Below are positions 18,495-42,932 of a stretch of 63,566 nucleotides of DNA, piece after piece. The notes beneath the pieces were generated by a model. The model saw only the letters and a program-made list of their open reading frames with translations, was not told the DNA's origin and did not search any database. The DNA is from Clostridia bacterium (GTDB lineage: Bacteria > Bacillota > Clostridia > Christensenellales > CAG-138). Numbering within the stretch: position 1 is the stretch's first letter; every line of letters starts with the position of its first letter. The stretch lies in assembly GCA_017451295.1 (NCBI GenBank), contig JAFSPW010000049.1, positions 1 through 63,566 of the forward strand, read 5' to 3'. A program made the translations under genes and the position numbers.

Positions 18495-18527
18495 GAAAAA
18501 AGCACTGCAAGAGCAGTGCTTTTTTTC
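18495..18527 (+). terminator. Intrinsic terminator after tRNA-Ala
   Basis: GAAAAAAGCACTGC-AAGA-GCAGTGCTTTTTTTC. Confidence 0.8.
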
Positions 18528-18750
18528 AACGAAATCCGTCCTTGCGGACGGGTGAAATCCGCTGCGCGGGTGAAATCGCCTGCGGCGGTGAAATCTGGAG
18601 GACGGATTTCATTTCATCGCGAGCGCAGCGAACGATTTCATCAAAGGTCTCAGCCTTTGATTTCACCTTTTGCCGCAAGGCAAAAGATTTCACTTTGTCC
18701 CGAGGGTTCGAATCCATCTATCAAAACGAAAAATCCATCTTTTTCATACC
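18528..18750 (+). repeat. Structured tRNA-3'-linked element, copy A (core GGTGAAATC)
   Basis: AACGAAATC/GGTGAAATC at 18528, 18551, 18569, 18587; inverted GATTTCAYY at 18605/18610, 18634, 18659, 18686; hairpins between the motifs; near-identical inverted copy at 25924-26157. Confidence 0.9.
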
Positions 18751-22522: not shown

Positions 22523-22729
22523 AATGATGTCGCCGCAAAAGCGGCTGATGATGTATCGGCTGAGGCCGAAATGATGCAGCGCGCTTTACGCGCAATGATG
22601 CGATGGTTGCCCTATGTGCCCGCAGGCACACATCATTGCCGAAGGCAACATCATGTGCCAAGCACGCATCATTTGCCCGTCAGGGCAAACATCATTGCAT
22701 AAAGCACGCCGAAGCGTGCTTTTTTCTGG
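22523..22729 (-). repeat. Structured element, copy D (variant core AATGATGY), preceded on the minus strand by CCA plus the tmRNA-type terminator
   Basis: RCATCATK at 22689, 22666, 22648, 22630 and RATGATGY at 22594, 22570, 22547, 22523, with hairpins between; 22701-22729 is identical to 26162-26190. Confidence 0.85.
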
Positions 22730-25923: not shown

Positions 25924-26157
25924 TACGAAAAAGATGGATTTGCGTTTTTGACAGATGGATTCAAACCCTCGGGACAAAGTGAAATCTTTTGCCTTGCGGC
26001 AAAAGGTGAAATCAAAGGCTGAGACCTTTGATGAAATCGTTCGCTGCGCTCGCGCTGAAATGAAATCCGTCCTCCACCCCGCGAAGCGGGATTTCACCGC
26101 CGCAGGCGATTTCACCCGCGCAGCGGATTTCACCCGTCCGCAAGGACGGATTTCGTT
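25924..26157 (-). repeat. Structured tRNA-3'-linked element, copy B (behind tmRNA)
   Basis: Near-identical reverse complement of 18528-18750, plus an extra central CCGCTTCGCGG hairpin. Confidence 0.9.
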
Positions 26158-26187
26158 GAAAAAAGCACGCCGAAGCGTGCTTTTTTC
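26158..26187 (-). terminator. Intrinsic terminator after tmRNA
   Basis: GAAAAAAGCACGC-TTCG-GCGTGCTTTTTTC on the minus strand. Confidence 0.8.
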
Positions 26188-39202: not shown

Positions 39203-40477
39203 ATGAAACCCTATGCCGACCTAACCAAAGCCCAACAGCAAGCGGAATTAGTTGCCCTGCAGGAACAGTATCAGCAGATAAAGGCCCGGGGGCTCAGCCT
39301 GAACATGGCTCGGGGCAAGCCCTCATCTGAGCAGCTGGACATTGTCAACGGCATGCTGACCACGCTGTCTGCCGGTTCAGACTGCTATGACGGAAAGCTG
39401 GACGTGCGTAACTATGGGGAGCTCATGGGCATTCCCAGCGCCCGGGCGCTGTTTGCGGACATCCTCGATACCGTGCCGGAGAAGATTATGGTGGGGGGCA
39501 GCGCCTCGCTGCAGCTCATGTTCGATTTAATCAGCAAGGCCTACACCCACGGTCTGCTCCATTCCCCCACGCCCTGGGCAAAGCTCGATACGGTGAAGTT
39601 CCTTTGCCCCGCCCCGGGCTATGACCGGCATTTTACCGTCAGCAGCACGTTTGGCATGGAGCTTGTGTATGTGCCCATGACAGAGAACGGGCCGGACATG
39701 GACAAGGTGGAGGAGCTTGTCCAGGACCCCACCGTGAAGGGTATCTGGTGCGTGCCCAAGTATTCCAATCCCGACGGCATCATCTATTCCAAAGACACCA
39801 TCGAGCGGTTTATCCATCTTCAACCGGCCGCCCCGGACTTTACCATCATGTGGGACAACGCGTATTGCATCCACGAGGTCATCGGGGACTATGTGCCCTT
39901 CCCGGATATCCTGTCGCTGGCGGCGCAGGCGGGCACGGAGGATATGTTCTATGAGTTTGCCTCCACCAGCAAGATTACCTTCCCCGGTGCCGGTATCTCC
40001 TGCATGGCGGCCAGCGTGGACAACATACAGTACATTCAACGGATTCTCTCCGCCCAGATCATCAGCTACGACAAGGTGAACCAGCTGCGGCATGTGAAGT
40101 ATTTGAAGGACAAAGCCCACACCCTGGAGCTGATGCAAGAGCACGCCAAGGTTTTAGGTCCCAAGTTCCAGGCCGTATTAGACGCCCTGGACAGGGAGAT
40201 TGCGCCGCTCAACATCGCCACCTGGCGCCGTCCCAAGGGCGGCTACTTCGTCAGCTTCTATGCCATGCCCGGCACCGCCAAGCGCATCTTCGCCCTGTGC
40301 AAGGAGGCGGGCTTGGTCATGACCAACGCCGGTGCCACCTATCCCTATGGCAAGGACCCCGCGGACAGCAACCTGCGTATCGCCCCCTCCTATCCGCCCC
40401 TGCAGGATTTACAGCAAGCCATGGAAATCTTCTGCCTGTGCACCAAGATAGCCGCCCTGGAAAAGCTGCTTGGCTAA
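39203..40477 (+). CDS. PLP-dependent aminotransferase class I/II (Rv3722c/AspAT Ic-like)
   Basis: LNMARGKPS, PGYDRHF, VPKYSNPDG, WDNAY, STSKITFPGAG, LRIAPS. Confidence 0.9.
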   Translation: MKPYADLTKAQQQAELVALQEQYQQIKARGLSLNMARGKPSSEQLDIVNGMLTTLSAGSDCYDGKLDVRNYGELMGIPSARALFADILDTVPEKIMVGGSASLQLMFDLISKAYTHGLLHSPTPWAKLDTVKFLCPAPGYDRHFTVSSTFGMELVYVPMTENGPDMDKVEELVQDPTVKGIWCVPKYSNPDGIIYSKDTIERFIHLQPAAPDFTIMWDNAYCIHEVIGDYVPFPDILSLAAQAGTEDMFYEFASTSKITFPGAGISCMAASVDNIQYIQRILSAQIISYDKVNQLRHVKYLKDKAHTLELMQEHAKVLGPKFQAVLDALDREIAPLNIATWRRPKGGYFVSFYAMPGTAKRIFALCKEAGLVMTNAGATYPYGKDPADSNLRIAPSYPPLQDLQQAMEIFCLCTKIAALEKLLG

Positions 40478-40532
40478 GACACAAACGCAAAAAAAGAGCC
40501 GGTGATACTATCGGGTCTTCCATCAAAGCATA

Positions 40533-40572
40533 CAATTCGGAGAGAGTGAAAGCTCTCTCCGATTGTTATTTT
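40533..40572. terminator. Terminator hairpin between convergent genes
   Basis: TCGGAGAGAG-TGAAAG-CTCTCTCCGA stem. Confidence 0.6.
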
Positions 40573-40587
40573 TACGATTGCCGACAG

Positions 40588-41856
40588 CTATGCCCAGATG
40601 AGCCAGAGGTATACATACCCGGTCATCACCGCAACTAAGGTGTAGGGCAGGCCGATTCGCATAAACTCTGCAAACGACACCTGATATCCTTCTTTTCTCA
40701 GCATTCCCACTGCGGCGATATTCGCAGATGCACCGATAGGCGTGACGTTTCCGCCTAAGGTAGCGCCGGACAGCAGCCCGAAGTACAGAAGATACGGCTC
40801 CATCCCCAGCGCTGCCGTTACAGCCGTCAGAACAGGCAGCATCGTCGCCACATACGGGATATTATCAACGAAGGCGGAAATAAGCACCGATCCCCAGACT
40901 ACGATTGTGTATAACAGGAAGATGTTGTTGCCGCCGAATGTTACAATCAGCCTTGCAAAATCATCGATGATGCCAACATTTGTGAGTCCGCCTATTACGA
41001 CAAACAATCCTGTAAGAAGCCCCAGCGTTTCAAAGTCCAGATTCTGTATGGCCTCGATGGCATTATGTGCATCTCTGGCTTGAATGAAATCAATCAGGAT
41101 CGTGACAACTGCCAATGAACAGCAGATAACGCCATTGATTATCTGCGGTGCATCCGGGATGAATGAAGCGGTAATGAGAGCCGCAACCATCAAAAGCAGC
41201 ATTACGGTCGGAACATAGTTGCTGACGGAAGTTTTCTCTGTTGCTGATACCGGCGCCTTGTCTTTGCGGAACAAATACATCATGACCGGCACGGTAGCGA
41301 GCGCTCCGAGTTCTACGGCAAAGAAGATGCCGGGCCGTCCGTTCATCCAAAAGAAATCCATGAAGTTCATGTTCGCATAGTCGCCTAACATGATGGATGT
41401 TGTATCCCCGACAAGCGTTGCAGCGCCCTGCAGATTGGAGGACACTGCAATAGAAAGAATCATGCCCACGGGGCTCATCTTTAGCTTTTTGCAAATGGCC
41501 ATCCCCACGGGAGCAACCATCAGGACCGTGGCAACGTTGTCGATGAATGCCGAGATTACGCCGGCAAAGAGAGACATCAGTATGGTTACCCACATAACAT
41601 TTTTAGATTTTCCCAGCAGGATGTCTGCCAAAAGGTTCGGCATGCGGGAATCAATGAAATAATAAACGATAATCATTGTTCCCGCTATCATCAGCAAAAC
41701 ATTCCAGTTGATCGTTGACAGCAGATTGTTCAGGGGCAATATGCCTGAAATCAGAAAAATCGCCGCCACAGACAGAGCGTAAATCGGCCTGTATTTTGGC
41801 TTGGCGATCATAAGTACATACATCAAAGCAAACAGGACTAAAGCAAGAATCTTCAT
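40588..41856 (-). CDS. ArsB/NhaD/SLC13-type ion transporter permease
   Basis: SAFIDNVATV, SNLQGAATLVGD, SAFVDNIP, LGGNVTPIGASAN; about 12 TM helices. Confidence 0.88.
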   Translation of the reverse strand: MKILALVLFALMYVLMIAKPKYRPIYALSVAAIFLISGILPLNNLLSTINWNVLLMIAGTMIIVYYFIDSRMPNLLADILLGKSKNVMWVTILMSLFAGVISAFIDNVATVLMVAPVGMAICKKLKMSPVGMILSIAVSSNLQGAATLVGDTTSIMLGDYANMNFMDFFWMNGRPGIFFAVELGALATVPVMMYLFRKDKAPVSATEKTSVSNYVPTVMLLLMVAALITASFIPDAPQIINGVICCSLAVVTILIDFIQARDAHNAIEAIQNLDFETLGLLTGLFVVIGGLTNVGIIDDFARLIVTFGGNNIFLLYTIVVWGSVLISAFVDNIPYVATMLPVLTAVTAALGMEPYLLYFGLLSGATLGGNVTPIGASANIAAVGMLRKEGYQVSFAEFMRIGLPYTLVAVMTGYVYLWLIWA

Positions 41857-41868
41857 CTTATTCCTCCG

Positions 41869-41970
41869 TCAACACCTGTGGGAATATTGAGAATTATGGG
41901 GCATTTGATTCATGCCGTAGATAAAGAACGCCAATCCGCCGAGCAATGTGAATACGGAAAAGATACTCAT
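41869..41970 (-). pseudogene. Truncated N-terminus of a Na/Pi cotransporter (NptA/YjbB-like)
   Basis: MSIFSVFTLLGGLAFFIYGMNQM then an abrupt unrelated tail and stop; GGAGG RBS. Confidence 0.6.
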
Positions 41971-42003
41971 AGATGCCTCCGAATGTAGTGTTGCAAAATG
42001 AAC

Positions 42004-42125
42004 AAAAAAAACTTTTACCACAACCAAAGCTGTGGTAAAAGTCTTGCTGCTTCGAACAGATTCCGGGGAAAATCCCGTACTGACGGAATATGTTGCGCGC
42101 TTGCGCCAGCTACTCCCTAATACCT
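42004..42125 (-). promoter_or_regulatory. yybP-ykoY (Mn2+) riboswitch with overlapping terminator
   Basis: Minus strand reads TAGGGAGTAGC...CCGTCAGTACGGG..CCCGG...AGCAAGAC, then CTTTTACCACA-loop-TGTGGTAAAAG-T8; TTGACA at 42156-42161. Confidence 0.8.
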
Positions 42126-42227
42126 ATAGTATCATATAACACTTTAGCGTCATTTTGTCAAGAAAGAGCGCCGGGCGACGGCAGTCAAAAAGTGCAATGT
42201 ACCGCTCCTCTGCAAAGCTGTGCGCTA

Positions 42228-42581
42228 TCAATCGGCGCTTTGATTCTTTTTTGCTGTATTTACCGAGTAAACAAGCATTCTACGAAGGGAGCCGCACATA
42301 TGAATGAGCCCAGATACTGTATCCGATGGTGCAAGCTCTGCCTTCTGCATGAGCTCCAACCAGTATTCTGTTTCATAGCACTCTTTCAATGCAATTTGCA
42401 GTTTTACTATGAAATCCGCTCTGCTGTGGGCATAGTTTGCCTCACGAATATTTGCTCCAATACTGGTGGCGGAACGTTCCAACTGATTGACAAGGGAATA
42501 ATGTCCTTTTATAGTATCACACAGTTTCAATATATTAACGGAAAAATCCATTGAGAGTGCGGCAAGTTTGCTTTCAGCCAT
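42228..42581 (-). CDS. Four-helix-bundle protein (TIGR02436/23S-IVP family, Avd-like fold)
   Basis: LVNQLERSATSIGANIREA..AHSRADFIVKLQIALKECYETEYWLEL signature; GAGGTGA RBS. Confidence 0.92.
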   Translation of the reverse strand: MAESKLAALSMDFSVNILKLCDTIKGHYSLVNQLERSATSIGANIREANYAHSRADFIVKLQIALKECYETEYWLELMQKAELAPSDTVSGLIHMCGSLRRMLVYSVNTAKKNQSAD

Positions 42582-42629
42582 AGAAGTCACCTCATGAACA
42601 TCATATCACACGAAATGTAAGGGAACAAC

Positions 42630-42807
42630 GGTGAAATCGCGGCCCCGGCCGCGGTGAAATCAACGGCCAATGCCATTGGTGAAATCCTCTCACTTCGTCC
42701 TCGGGTGAAATGAAATCCGTCCCGCACCCCGCGAAGCGGGATTTCACCGCGAAGCGATTTCGCCCACCGAAGGTGGATTTCACCCGTCCGAAAGGACGGA
42801 TTTCGTT
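42630..42807 (-). repeat. Structured tRNA-3'-linked element, copy C (behind tRNA-Leu, upstream of the four-helix-bundle gene)
   Basis: GATTTCRYY at 42799, 42776, 42756, 42740 and GGTGAAAT(C/G) at 42704, 42678, 42653, 42630; hairpins differ in sequence from A/B but remain paired. Confidence 0.9.
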
Positions 42808-42847
42808 GAAAAAAGCACTTTTGTCTATCGACAAAAGTGCTTTTTTC
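42808..42847 (-). terminator. Intrinsic terminator after tRNA-Leu
   Basis: GAAAAAAGCACTTTTGTC-loop-GACAAAAGTGCTTTTTTC. Confidence 0.8.
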
Positions 42848-42848
42848 T

Positions 42849-42932
42849 TGGTGCGGTGGACGAGACTTGAACTCGTACGCACGGAGCACACGCACCTCAA
42901 ACGTGCCTGTCTGCCAATTCCAGCACCACCGC
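42849..42932 (-). tRNA. tRNA-Leu(GAG)
   Basis: GCGGTGGTGCTGGAATTGGCAGACAGGCACGTTTGAGGTGCGTGTGCTCCGTGCGTACGAGTTCAAGTCTCGTCCACCGCACCA; long variable arm; TTGACA-17-TATAAT promoter at 42944-42972. Confidence 0.96.

Follow-up and report, generated by a model that had tools for sequence, protein, structure and literature searches.

A PF05635 four-helix-bundle gene and its inverted Gut-1 arrays behind a tRNA-Leu gene of a Clostridia bacterium: a candidate reader of array words

This report concerns a small protein gene, and the structured repeat array in front of it, on a stretch of 63,566 nucleotides (nt) from a Clostridia bacterium (GTDB lineage Bacteria; Bacillota; Clostridia; Christensenellales; CAG-138). 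The whole stretch, termed ‘the window’ throughout, is contig JAFSPW010000049.1, positions 1 to 63,566, of GenBank assembly GCA_017451295.1, which comprises 1.67 Mb in 114 contigs and is 75% complete. Read on the minus strand, the parts of the locus follow one another in the order tRNA-Leu, terminator hairpin, Gut-1 array, inverted copy of the array, a spacer of 48 nt that holds a promoter and a ribosome site, and a gene of the PF05635/TIGR02436 family. This is the order that an earlier reading of the letters alone (the original prediction) had proposed, with the arrays named ‘element C’, and all of its parts were located. The tRNA-Leu(GAG) gene (42849-42932, minus strand; called by ARAGORN) has a perfect promoter, TTGACA-17-TATAAT, at 42972-42944 (promoter consensus scan), and the cassette starts straight after its CCA end. 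What comes at once is a hairpin with an 18-bp stem (42809-42848, minus strand; fold prediction), with an A run on one side and a T run on the other in the manner of bidirectional terminators. A simple terminator scan did not list this hairpin, and its stem is visible in the fold only; a hairpin of terminator type is also present at the native tRNA-Leu sites of relatives. No promoter was seen ahead of the array, which begins right behind this strong hairpin and its T run. Nor did an Rfam scan find any rRNA match in the window: the site is the end of a tRNA-Leu gene, not the interior of a 23S rRNA helix.

Element C is an inverted pair of half arrays, each with four to five copies of a 7-nt word (GTGAAAT in the forward half, ATTTCAC in the inverted half), and the words are separated by small GC-rich hairpins in which every stem is different. 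The forward half (42736-42808, minus strand) has the words CGAAAT, GTGAAAT, GCGAAAT and GTGAAAT, with three small hairpins between them, and is a full-length match to the Rfam family Gut-1 (RF01706), at 69.6 bits (E 6e-14), above the gathering cut-off of 50. A central hairpin and the inverted half follow (42629-42735, minus strand), with the words ATTTCAC or ATTTCAT between hairpins; these words start, in plus-strand coordinates, at 42631, 42654, 42679, 42705 and 42710. Read on the plus strand, the inverted half (42629-42716) also aligns to Gut-1, at 30.8 bits, under the cut-off. The 9-mer GGTGAAATC occurs 13 times in the window against an expectation of 0.55, a number reached in 0 of 100 shuffles, and element C folds far better than its shuffles do, whether as RNA (z -6.75) or as DNA (z -7.84).

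The gene itself (42228-42581, minus strand) encodes a protein of 117 amino acids (aa) of the 23S_rRNA_IVP / TIGR02436 family. Its true start is the ATG at 42581, and its stop lies at 42228; a GTG at 42590, offered by the open reading frame (ORF) lister, was rejected as the start since it sits within the ribosome site. The protein matches PF05635 at 84.5 bits (cut-off 33.8; E 7e-24) over profile positions 6-104 of 106, and TIGR02436 at 96.5 bits (cut-off 24; E 1e-27). The AlphaFold model (predicted local distance difference test, pLDDT, 94.6) has four helices, at residues 2-23, 28-48, 54-80 and 86-115. Foldseek matches it best to 2RLD, chains A-E (template modelling score, TM, 0.81-0.87; ~39% identity), next to 2GSC, chains A-E (TM 0.82-0.86), and then to Avd, the accessory protein of diversity-generating retroelements (DGRs; 8UB7 and 4DWL, TM ~0.8, 11% identity). 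At the level of the model, these matches confirm the Avd-like four-helix-bundle fold that had been predicted, but put the protein on the IVP branch. Both 2RLD and 2GSC were solved as chains A-E, and another member, Xcc0516, is described as a toroidal homopentamer (PMC4990558). By analogy with these crystallised relatives, the protein most likely forms a five-membered ring.

The 48 nt between array and gene (42582-42629) hold what reads as the cassette’s own promoter and ribosome site (42582-42628, minus strand): TTGTTC (42628-42623), 17 nt, an extended -10, TG-n-TATGAT (42608-42600), and GAGGTGA (42593-42587). The TG-TATGAT and GAGGTGA motifs of the original prediction are thus where they were said to be, and conservation in relatives backs the promoter. 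Its -35 begins 2 nt past the last array word. The consensus scan did not call this promoter because the -35 matches at only 3 of 6 positions. Among related loci, however, a -10 that matches at 5 or more of 6 positions lies in the same spacer in 60 of 74, with the TG extension in 41 of those 60; and where the -35 matches at 4 or more positions (34 loci), it starts at most 5 nt from the end of a word in 29. The distance from last word to start codon has a median of 49 nt in relatives (interquartile range 44-53), and is 48 nt here, counted from the copy of GGTGAAATC that contains the last word. The conserved positions of the -10 and -35 imply that the promoter is part of the cassette, and that the arrays lie upstream of it, outside the gene’s own predicted mRNA. 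A promoter-like site of the opposite polarity, TTGACA-17-TATAGT (11/12), occurs inside the four-helix-bundle gene (42487-42515, plus strand) and points at the array. As a real promoter it was set aside, and treated as chance; by eye, it is not conserved in the related locus L046.

That gene and element make up one unit was a further claim of the original prediction, and one that should show as co-occurrence and adjacency in other genomes. We surveyed 151 genomes of its family, with this one among them. They yielded 69 PF05635 matches, and 68 loci were analysed. Arrays were called in the flanks where a word recurred three or more times at a spacing of 13-34 nt with hairpins between, or where Tandem Repeats Finder reported repeats of ~7 nt; 1879 ORFs of this genome served as controls. 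With both callers, arrays flank 49 of the 68 loci versus 203 of the 1879 controls, and hairpin-type arrays alone flank 28 of 68 versus 45 of 1879. Most of the loci missed by the callers carry degenerate arrays by eye (e.g. L024, L053, L036, L041, L042, L079 and L084), and contig ends truncate four. Two other measures were tried and dropped. A count of repeated 6-mers in the flanks separated loci from controls weakly (7 or more copies in 31/68 versus 51/1879), the heptamers being degenerate, and was replaced by the array callers; the best inverted-repeat score (30 or more in 14/63 versus 6/500) did not discriminate, ordinary terminators scoring equally. At the level of whole genomes, Gut-1 is present in 53 of the 151 and PF05635 in 40, with both in 30, Gut-1 only in 23, PF05635 only in 10 and neither in 88, counts to which we attach no p-value weight, related genomes not being independent.

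Three layouts recur. The first is that of the present locus (and of L028, L032, L046, L050 and L065): hairpin, forward half, inverted half, promoter and gene, placed behind a tRNA gene or a terminator. The second has the inverted half, the gene and then the forward half, wedged without a promoter among the genes of an operon (L031 and L033, of the same genus, and L067). The third comprises variants of both in which the arrays are plain tandem heptamers. A scan for close relatives, one genome per species, added 80 loci with proteins 66-80% identical, from among at least 580 matching stretches; they come from metagenome-assembled genomes (MAGs) labelled Oscillospiraceae, Acutalibacteraceae, Christensenellaceae, Faecousia, Ruminococcus and others. 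The 75 of these loci that have 330 nt of upstream sequence were counted. Three or more inverted words, ATTTCA[CT], lie within those 330 nt in 70 of the 75, and the commonest upstream 7-mer is a word of this family in 73. The inverted half has four words in 38 loci, five in 15 and three in 13. A tRNA gene on the same strand lies upstream in 55 of the 75, ending 159-420 nt away (mostly 222-284) and representing 14 amino-acid identities. The junction, in most of these 55, is built alike: CCA, an A run at once, a hairpin of variable sequence, a T run and CAAC[GT]AAAT. Recurrent adjacency in relatives, together with the array linkage of both PF05635 genes of this genome (below), supports the view that gene and element are one unit. 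Subsets of related cassettes have a common gene directly after the four-helix-bundle gene (L110, L116, L122 and L123; L111 and L118; L112 and L114; L131, L136 and L044). Others end in a terminator, which suggests that variable second genes travel with the cassette.

The cassette is absent from the corresponding site of genus relatives. The genus has 16 other genomes, and in 9 of them the orthologous tRNA-Leu(GAG) site, at 2 mismatches, was examined; all 9 are without the array and without the four-helix-bundle gene; they have the terminator hairpin only, and then other genes. The next gene in four of the empty sites is a convergent aspartate aminotransferase, which in this genome lies 2.3 kb further on (39203-40477). 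Since the aminotransferase adjoins tRNA-Leu in those four relatives, the intervening stretch, which comprises the array and its gene, then a leader, an ORF of 52 aa and the CitMHS transporter, is specific to this lineage. Cassettes 69-71% identical in DNA sit elsewhere in two members of the genus, behind tRNA-Arg in one (G142) and with the gene broken by stops in the other (G091). We also considered a tRNA-targeting integrative island, and rejected it: there is no integrase among the neighbours (aminotransferase, CitMHS transporter, VanW), and no duplicate of the last 30 nt of the tRNA downstream of the gene over background (median score 8 versus 8 in 51 loci, with one outlier). By these comparisons, the cassette comes and goes without the marks of an integrase island.

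The interval from tRNA-Leu to the aminotransferase (40478-42848) is variable in the genus in its own right. In four genomes it is empty; one genome has a kinase-like gene there, two have a sodium:solute-symporter-like gene, and two a small gene of unknown kind. The interval is thus a hotspot of gene gain behind a tRNA, without an integrase. As a test of the transporter as cassette cargo, we looked at its homologues in four genus relatives; they are located elsewhere, and upstream of them there is no four-helix-bundle gene, no tRNA and no array. Immediately past the four-helix-bundle gene of this locus, a promoter of the type TTGACA-17-TATATG (~42160-42130), seen by eye, would drive a structured leader of ~120 nt (the whole at 42003-42160, minus strand). 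A 17-bp terminator (42045-42008) closes the leader, and the 52-aa ORF and the CitMHS-family transporter (40588-41856) come after it. Rfam gave no known riboswitch there, only a sub-threshold match to SSRC10 (29.4 bits versus 56). The leader could be an unclassified attenuator or riboswitch, and contigs from other organisms in the sequencing runs match the same stretch.

Most arrays in this genome have no gene. There are 20 Gut-1-like matches, 7 of them over the cut-off, and only one of the 20 has a PF05635 gene beside it; conversely, the genome has two such genes, and both are array-linked. The second (contig C49, truncated by the contig end) lies ~20 nt downstream of an inverted array pair with the word TCGATAT/ATATCGA. 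Six of the matches start at most ~45 nt past a gene called by ARAGORN (tmRNA, tRNA-Leu, two tRNA-Ala, tRNA-Ser and tRNA-Gln), and a seventh lies, by eye, behind a tRNA-like 3' end on contig C78. Several word families share the architecture: GTGAAAT, ATGATGT, GTGAATT, ATGATAT and GCGATAT/TCGATAT. The original prediction had named three copies in the window, A, B and D, as protein-less, and gene-less arrays of like architecture they are. Copy A (18495-18693, plus strand; Gut-1, 67.4 bits) consists of hairpin, forward half and inverted half directly after a tRNA-Ala gene, and is 75% identical to element C over ~165 nt. Copy B (25979-26187, minus strand; 69.7 bits) follows the tmRNA gene directly and is 83% identical. 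Copy D (22524-22727, minus strand), with the words ATGATGT forward and ACATCAT-type inverted, is a weak Gut-1 match (35.9 bits), and is preceded by a protein gene, not a tRNA.

Two peculiarities of the gene-less copies may be mentioned here. Those of the GTGAAAT family (18694-18750, 25940-25978 and on contigs C49 and C75) have an extra conserved tail of ~60 nt after the inverted half, which includes the T-arm-like GGTTCGAATCC; the gene-bearing copy is without this tail. And six to seven near-identical gene-less elements of the GTGAATT family (contigs C29, C41, C59, C62, C70 and C106; L007, L008, L011, L012, L014, L015 and L020) have the halves in reversed order, inverted then forward, which is the bracketing layout minus the gene. 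Several of them lie at contig ends, suggesting that they broke the assembly.

The further idea of the original prediction, that any catalytic partner, a reverse transcriptase (RT) or recombinase, acts in trans, is not supported as regards an RT or HUH partner. Neither RVT_1 nor the Y1 HUH transposase (PF01797, Y1_Tnp) has a match in this genome, 75% complete as it is. RVT_1 occurs in 41 of the 151 family genomes and is absent from 25 of the 40 with PF05635, including some rated 95-97% complete. A repetitive extragenic palindrome or bacterial interspersed mosaic element (REP/BIME) served by a REP-associated tyrosine transposase (RAYT, of the HUH Y1 kind) was rejected on the same missing PF01797 match. 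No pair of template and variable repeats was seen around the gene. True Avd-type genes of DGRs do occur in the survey, and look different: L086-L088 (in G109, G122 and G129) score under the Pfam cut-off, have an RT adjacent in all three cases, and form separate long branches on the protein tree; AAC-rich repeats lie downstream in L086 and L087.

Does the protein read the words? The original prediction had suggested that an oligomeric barrel could bind the repeated motif-hairpin units. Several lines of evidence point this way; the binding itself we infer. The words are identical inside an array and kept across genera, and the stems between them are unrelated, a combination for which slippage or pairing is not a sufficient explanation. 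A single genome, moreover, can hold several word families, so any reader of the words should be family-specific. On a tree of 52 labelled proteins, 26 word labels require 26 changes (the minimum is 25), versus at least 39 in 200 shuffles, although this match of clade and word could, taken alone, be explained by co-inheritance. There is, further, a correspondence of residue to base. Among 116 alignment columns, residue 4 best predicts whether the word begins with G or A. It does so in 68 of the 69 close relatives whose state is clear, Ser pairing with G in 36 of 37 and Asn with A in 32 of 32. The same rule holds across the xTGAAAT, xTGAAGT, xTGATGT and ATGATAT families. N-termini of ESKL type accompany GTGAAGT and GTGATGT, as well as GCTAAAT and GTTATAT; those of ENKL or NDKL type accompany ATGAAGT, ATGATGT and ATGATAT. 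In a pool of 137 distinct proteins that takes in 80 metagenome loci, residue 4 is Ser in 78, Pro in 4 and Asn in 1 of those with a G-first word, and Asn in 42 and Asp in 12 of those with an A-first word, so that 136 of 137 tips fit; the GCGATAT family, whose residue is Gln or Thr, was left out of this set as its register is uncertain. Residue 7 (Arg versus Ala) and residues 46-55 of the signature helix also track the words, with fewer contrasts.

One switch of word can be followed more closely. A subclade with A-first words (L157, L169, L126, L152 and L145) is nested among proteins with G-first words. Similarity of whole arrays, at 0.644 to the G sisters versus 0.615 to the main A clade, was too close to be of use as a guide to their origin, and the neighbouring base was used instead. 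The base after the word is A in this subclade, as in its G sisters (15/20 and 19/24), whereas the main A clade has C (21/22); in L157 and L126, 6 of the 8 words of the array are changed ones. The subclade seems to have altered its words in situ rather than to have imported a foreign array. Structure offers precedent of another kind. The four to five words of a half array would fit a five-membered ring, although they would also fit a stem of 28-35 bp. According to a cryo-electron microscopy report on the Bordetella phage DGR (bioRxiv 10.1101/2023.10.23.563531), all five protomers of Avd contact one UNCG-tetraloop stem-loop, and flipped-out bases are held in crevices between protomers. From clade-specific words, residue-4 covariation, word number and the Avd precedent together, the protein emerges as a credible cognate reader of the words of its own array, a proposition that they support indirectly; the original interpretation as a whole is supported in part.

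A number of observations weigh against this. The GTGAATT, ATGATGT and ATGATAT families are present in this 75%-complete assembly without a matching gene. Moreover, 23 of the 53 Gut-1-positive genomes are without PF05635, among them genomes 96-98% complete with 9 to 14 matches each (G068, G093 and G031); gene-less arrays therefore persist by themselves, as relics or via some other process. Word state switches 7 to 8 times on the best trees, but only 3 to 4 of the switches are on well-supported branches, and each of these runs the same way (p 0.125 to 0.25 in a sign test, which is underpowered). The array and the codon for residue 4 are ~60 nt apart, so an exchanged block that took in both the array and the start of the gene could look like co-evolution. 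The stems give no sign of strand-specific RNA: 1521 of 1540 pairs are Watson-Crick, with 6 G.T against 5 A.C, numbers too small to tell RNA from DNA. Lastly, the family is near neutral in charge, with a median of +2 for the IVP-type proteins of the survey and 0 for this protein, versus +4 to +8 for the three DGR-type proteins.

As to which nucleic acid is involved, the two half arrays mirror each other, and the word and loops of one half recur in the other on the opposite strand. Array sequence is covered by contigs from three RNA libraries (two studies), although carry-over of DNA could account for this. The sequencing runs were assessed as assembled contigs only, which give no starts, ends, strand or level; that the gene body is uncovered in the RNA runs proves nothing in such data.

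The explanation that we favour, by a modest preference, is that the protein reads single-stranded 7-nt words of its own array family, within a cassette that has no integrase. The cassette consists of an A/T-flanked hairpin, a forward Gut-1 array, an inverted array, an extended -10 promoter and a four-helix-bundle gene, docked here exactly behind the CCA end of tRNA-Leu. A ring of the protein would recognise the words, as DNA or RNA, each protomer taking one word while the small hairpins loop out. Since the last word abuts the -35 of the gene promoter, the first consequence of contact would be autoregulation of the gene. That contact probably also helps to maintain or copy the cassette, and gene-less arrays (A, B, D and others) would be left-over copies or copies served in trans. 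A rival account, which we judge unlikely but worth serious attention, has gene and arrays travel together without the protein reading the words. The arrays would then be the structural ends of a selfish cassette like the intervening sequences (IVSs) of rRNA, their hairpins acted on by RNase III or by host recombination or replication; the protein would have another role, and the Ser/Asn pattern would come from exchange of blocks of array and gene 5' end. The IVS of Coxiella speaks for it, with heptamers upstream of an S23p ORF and a 28-bp stem cut by RNase III, and with authors who doubt that the protein is made (as stated in PMC4990558). Likewise, inverted and forward arrays bracket the gene, IVS-like, in the operon-embedded L031, L033 and L067, and 23 genomes keep arrays without the gene. 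Block replacement also fits the codons, since Ser4 is TCx in the G sisters and requires at least two changes to become Asn. But pairing alone would let word pairs drift, and the words are constant within arrays and across genera while the stems vary. A single host factor, moreover, leaves the specificity of several word families in one genome unexplained, and in the tRNA-docked form both halves lie upstream of the promoter, so they cannot cut the ORF out of a transcript. The nested A-word subclade, in which the G-sister context of the array is retained, argues in addition against wholesale import from the main A clade.

Two other accounts fare worse. In the first, the array is a small RNA standing by itself, or an element of the tRNA 3' trailer, in line with how Rfam files Gut-1, and the gene is an unrelated neighbour. 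Gut-1 was, after all, described as a likely non-coding RNA (in the text of PMC2864571), most copies are gene-less (19 of the 20 here), and the array-covering contigs from the three RNA libraries would agree, with the proviso on DNA carry-over given above. An unrelated neighbour is, however, hard to reconcile with adjacency at a fixed distance in 70 of 75 related loci and with a word of its own for each protein clade, and a free-standing RNA with an array that has no promoter before it, starts behind a strong T-run hairpin and shows no G.U strand bias in its stems; we consider this account very improbable. More improbable still, to the point of being barely credible, is that a DGR decayed and left its Avd gene behind as an orphan. 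The fold would allow it (TM ~0.8 to 4DWL and 8UB7), but RT is missing from this 75%-complete genome as it is from 25 of the 40 genomes with PF05635, and the true DGR genes of the survey differ in RT neighbour, sub-cut-off score, more positive charge and long separate branches.

A wider proposal can be put forward tentatively, and we would place rather less trust in it than in the reading of words at this locus. It is that PF05635 proteins outside DGRs are ring-shaped readers of words with an evolvable code, within an undescribed class of integrase-less mobile cassettes, and that this explains rRNA IVSs, Gut-1 and heptamer arrays alike. The code would assign G to Ser or Pro at residue 4, and A to Asn or Asp, and residues ~46-55 may read the middle bases; docking sites would include the exact 3' ends of tRNA genes, sites after terminators, gaps between operon genes, and the insides of rRNA helices. 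PF05635 is a large crystallised family that has had no function since the 1990s, and Gut-1 has been an orphan since 2010; here they are tied into one unit. The correspondence of residue to base is testable by two point mutations, and so both puzzles become a simple bench question. If word reading is true, the protein would be a new small scaffold for sequence-specific recognition of nucleic acids, and the cassette an entry point to how elements without a recombinase reach the exact end of many tRNA genes.

How does the cassette compare with what has been described? The Omega repressor of plasmid pSM19035 and the TRAP protein of Bacillus are small oligomers that read arrays of short words, DNA heptads upstream of promoters in the one case and RNA triplets around a ring in the other. 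They serve as working analogies, both for an arrangement of one word to a subunit and for autoregulation; their folds, however, are unrelated (ribbon-helix-helix and beta-sandwich ring), and they are not known to have hairpins between the words or to travel in a mobile cassette. Avd has the same four-helix-bundle fold, and its pentamer is reported to bind stem-loop RNA with bases held between protomers (bioRxiv 10.1101/2023.10.23.563531), but identity is ~11%, the charge of the present protein is much lower, and no RT, template repeat or variable repeat accompanies it. For PF05635 genes outside rRNA, full-text searches gave no published link to word arrays or tRNA ends, although the supplement of the Gut-1 report may say more; ‘23S rRNA IVP’ appears in a figure legend of PMC10910872 as one of the proteins associated with CRISPR adaptation modules. 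Gut-1 (RF01706) was introduced as an orphan non-coding RNA motif, seen, according to the text of its report, in human gut metagenomes only (Weinberg et al. 2010, PMC2864571). The present forward half matches it along its full length and over the family cut-off. Unlike Gut-1 as described, the motif is here one half of an inverted pair, is placed at the ends of tRNAs and terminators, and is tied to a protein gene; and it is found not in human gut alone, but in 53 of 151 genomes of one Clostridia family and in MAGs labelled animal gut.

The closest described system is the ORF-bearing IVS of 23S rRNA (in Coxiella, Leptospira and others). The Coxiella element carries tandem heptamers ahead of its S23p ORF, RNase III cuts its terminal stem of 28 bp in vitro, and its mobility is hypothesised only (PMC4990558). 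Such IVSs share much with the cassette described here: a PF05635 protein, a small gene with short repeats and inverted arms, lodging beside or within the gene of a stable RNA, a sporadic distribution, and no transposase or integrase. They differ in that the cassette lies behind a tRNA gene rather than inside an rRNA helix, and has both half arrays upstream of the gene rather than enclosing the ORF. Its words, furthermore, are interleaved with mini-hairpins, its gene has a promoter of its own, and its layout needs no excision by RNase III. The cassette is, in these terms, a variant of the IVS-type elements.

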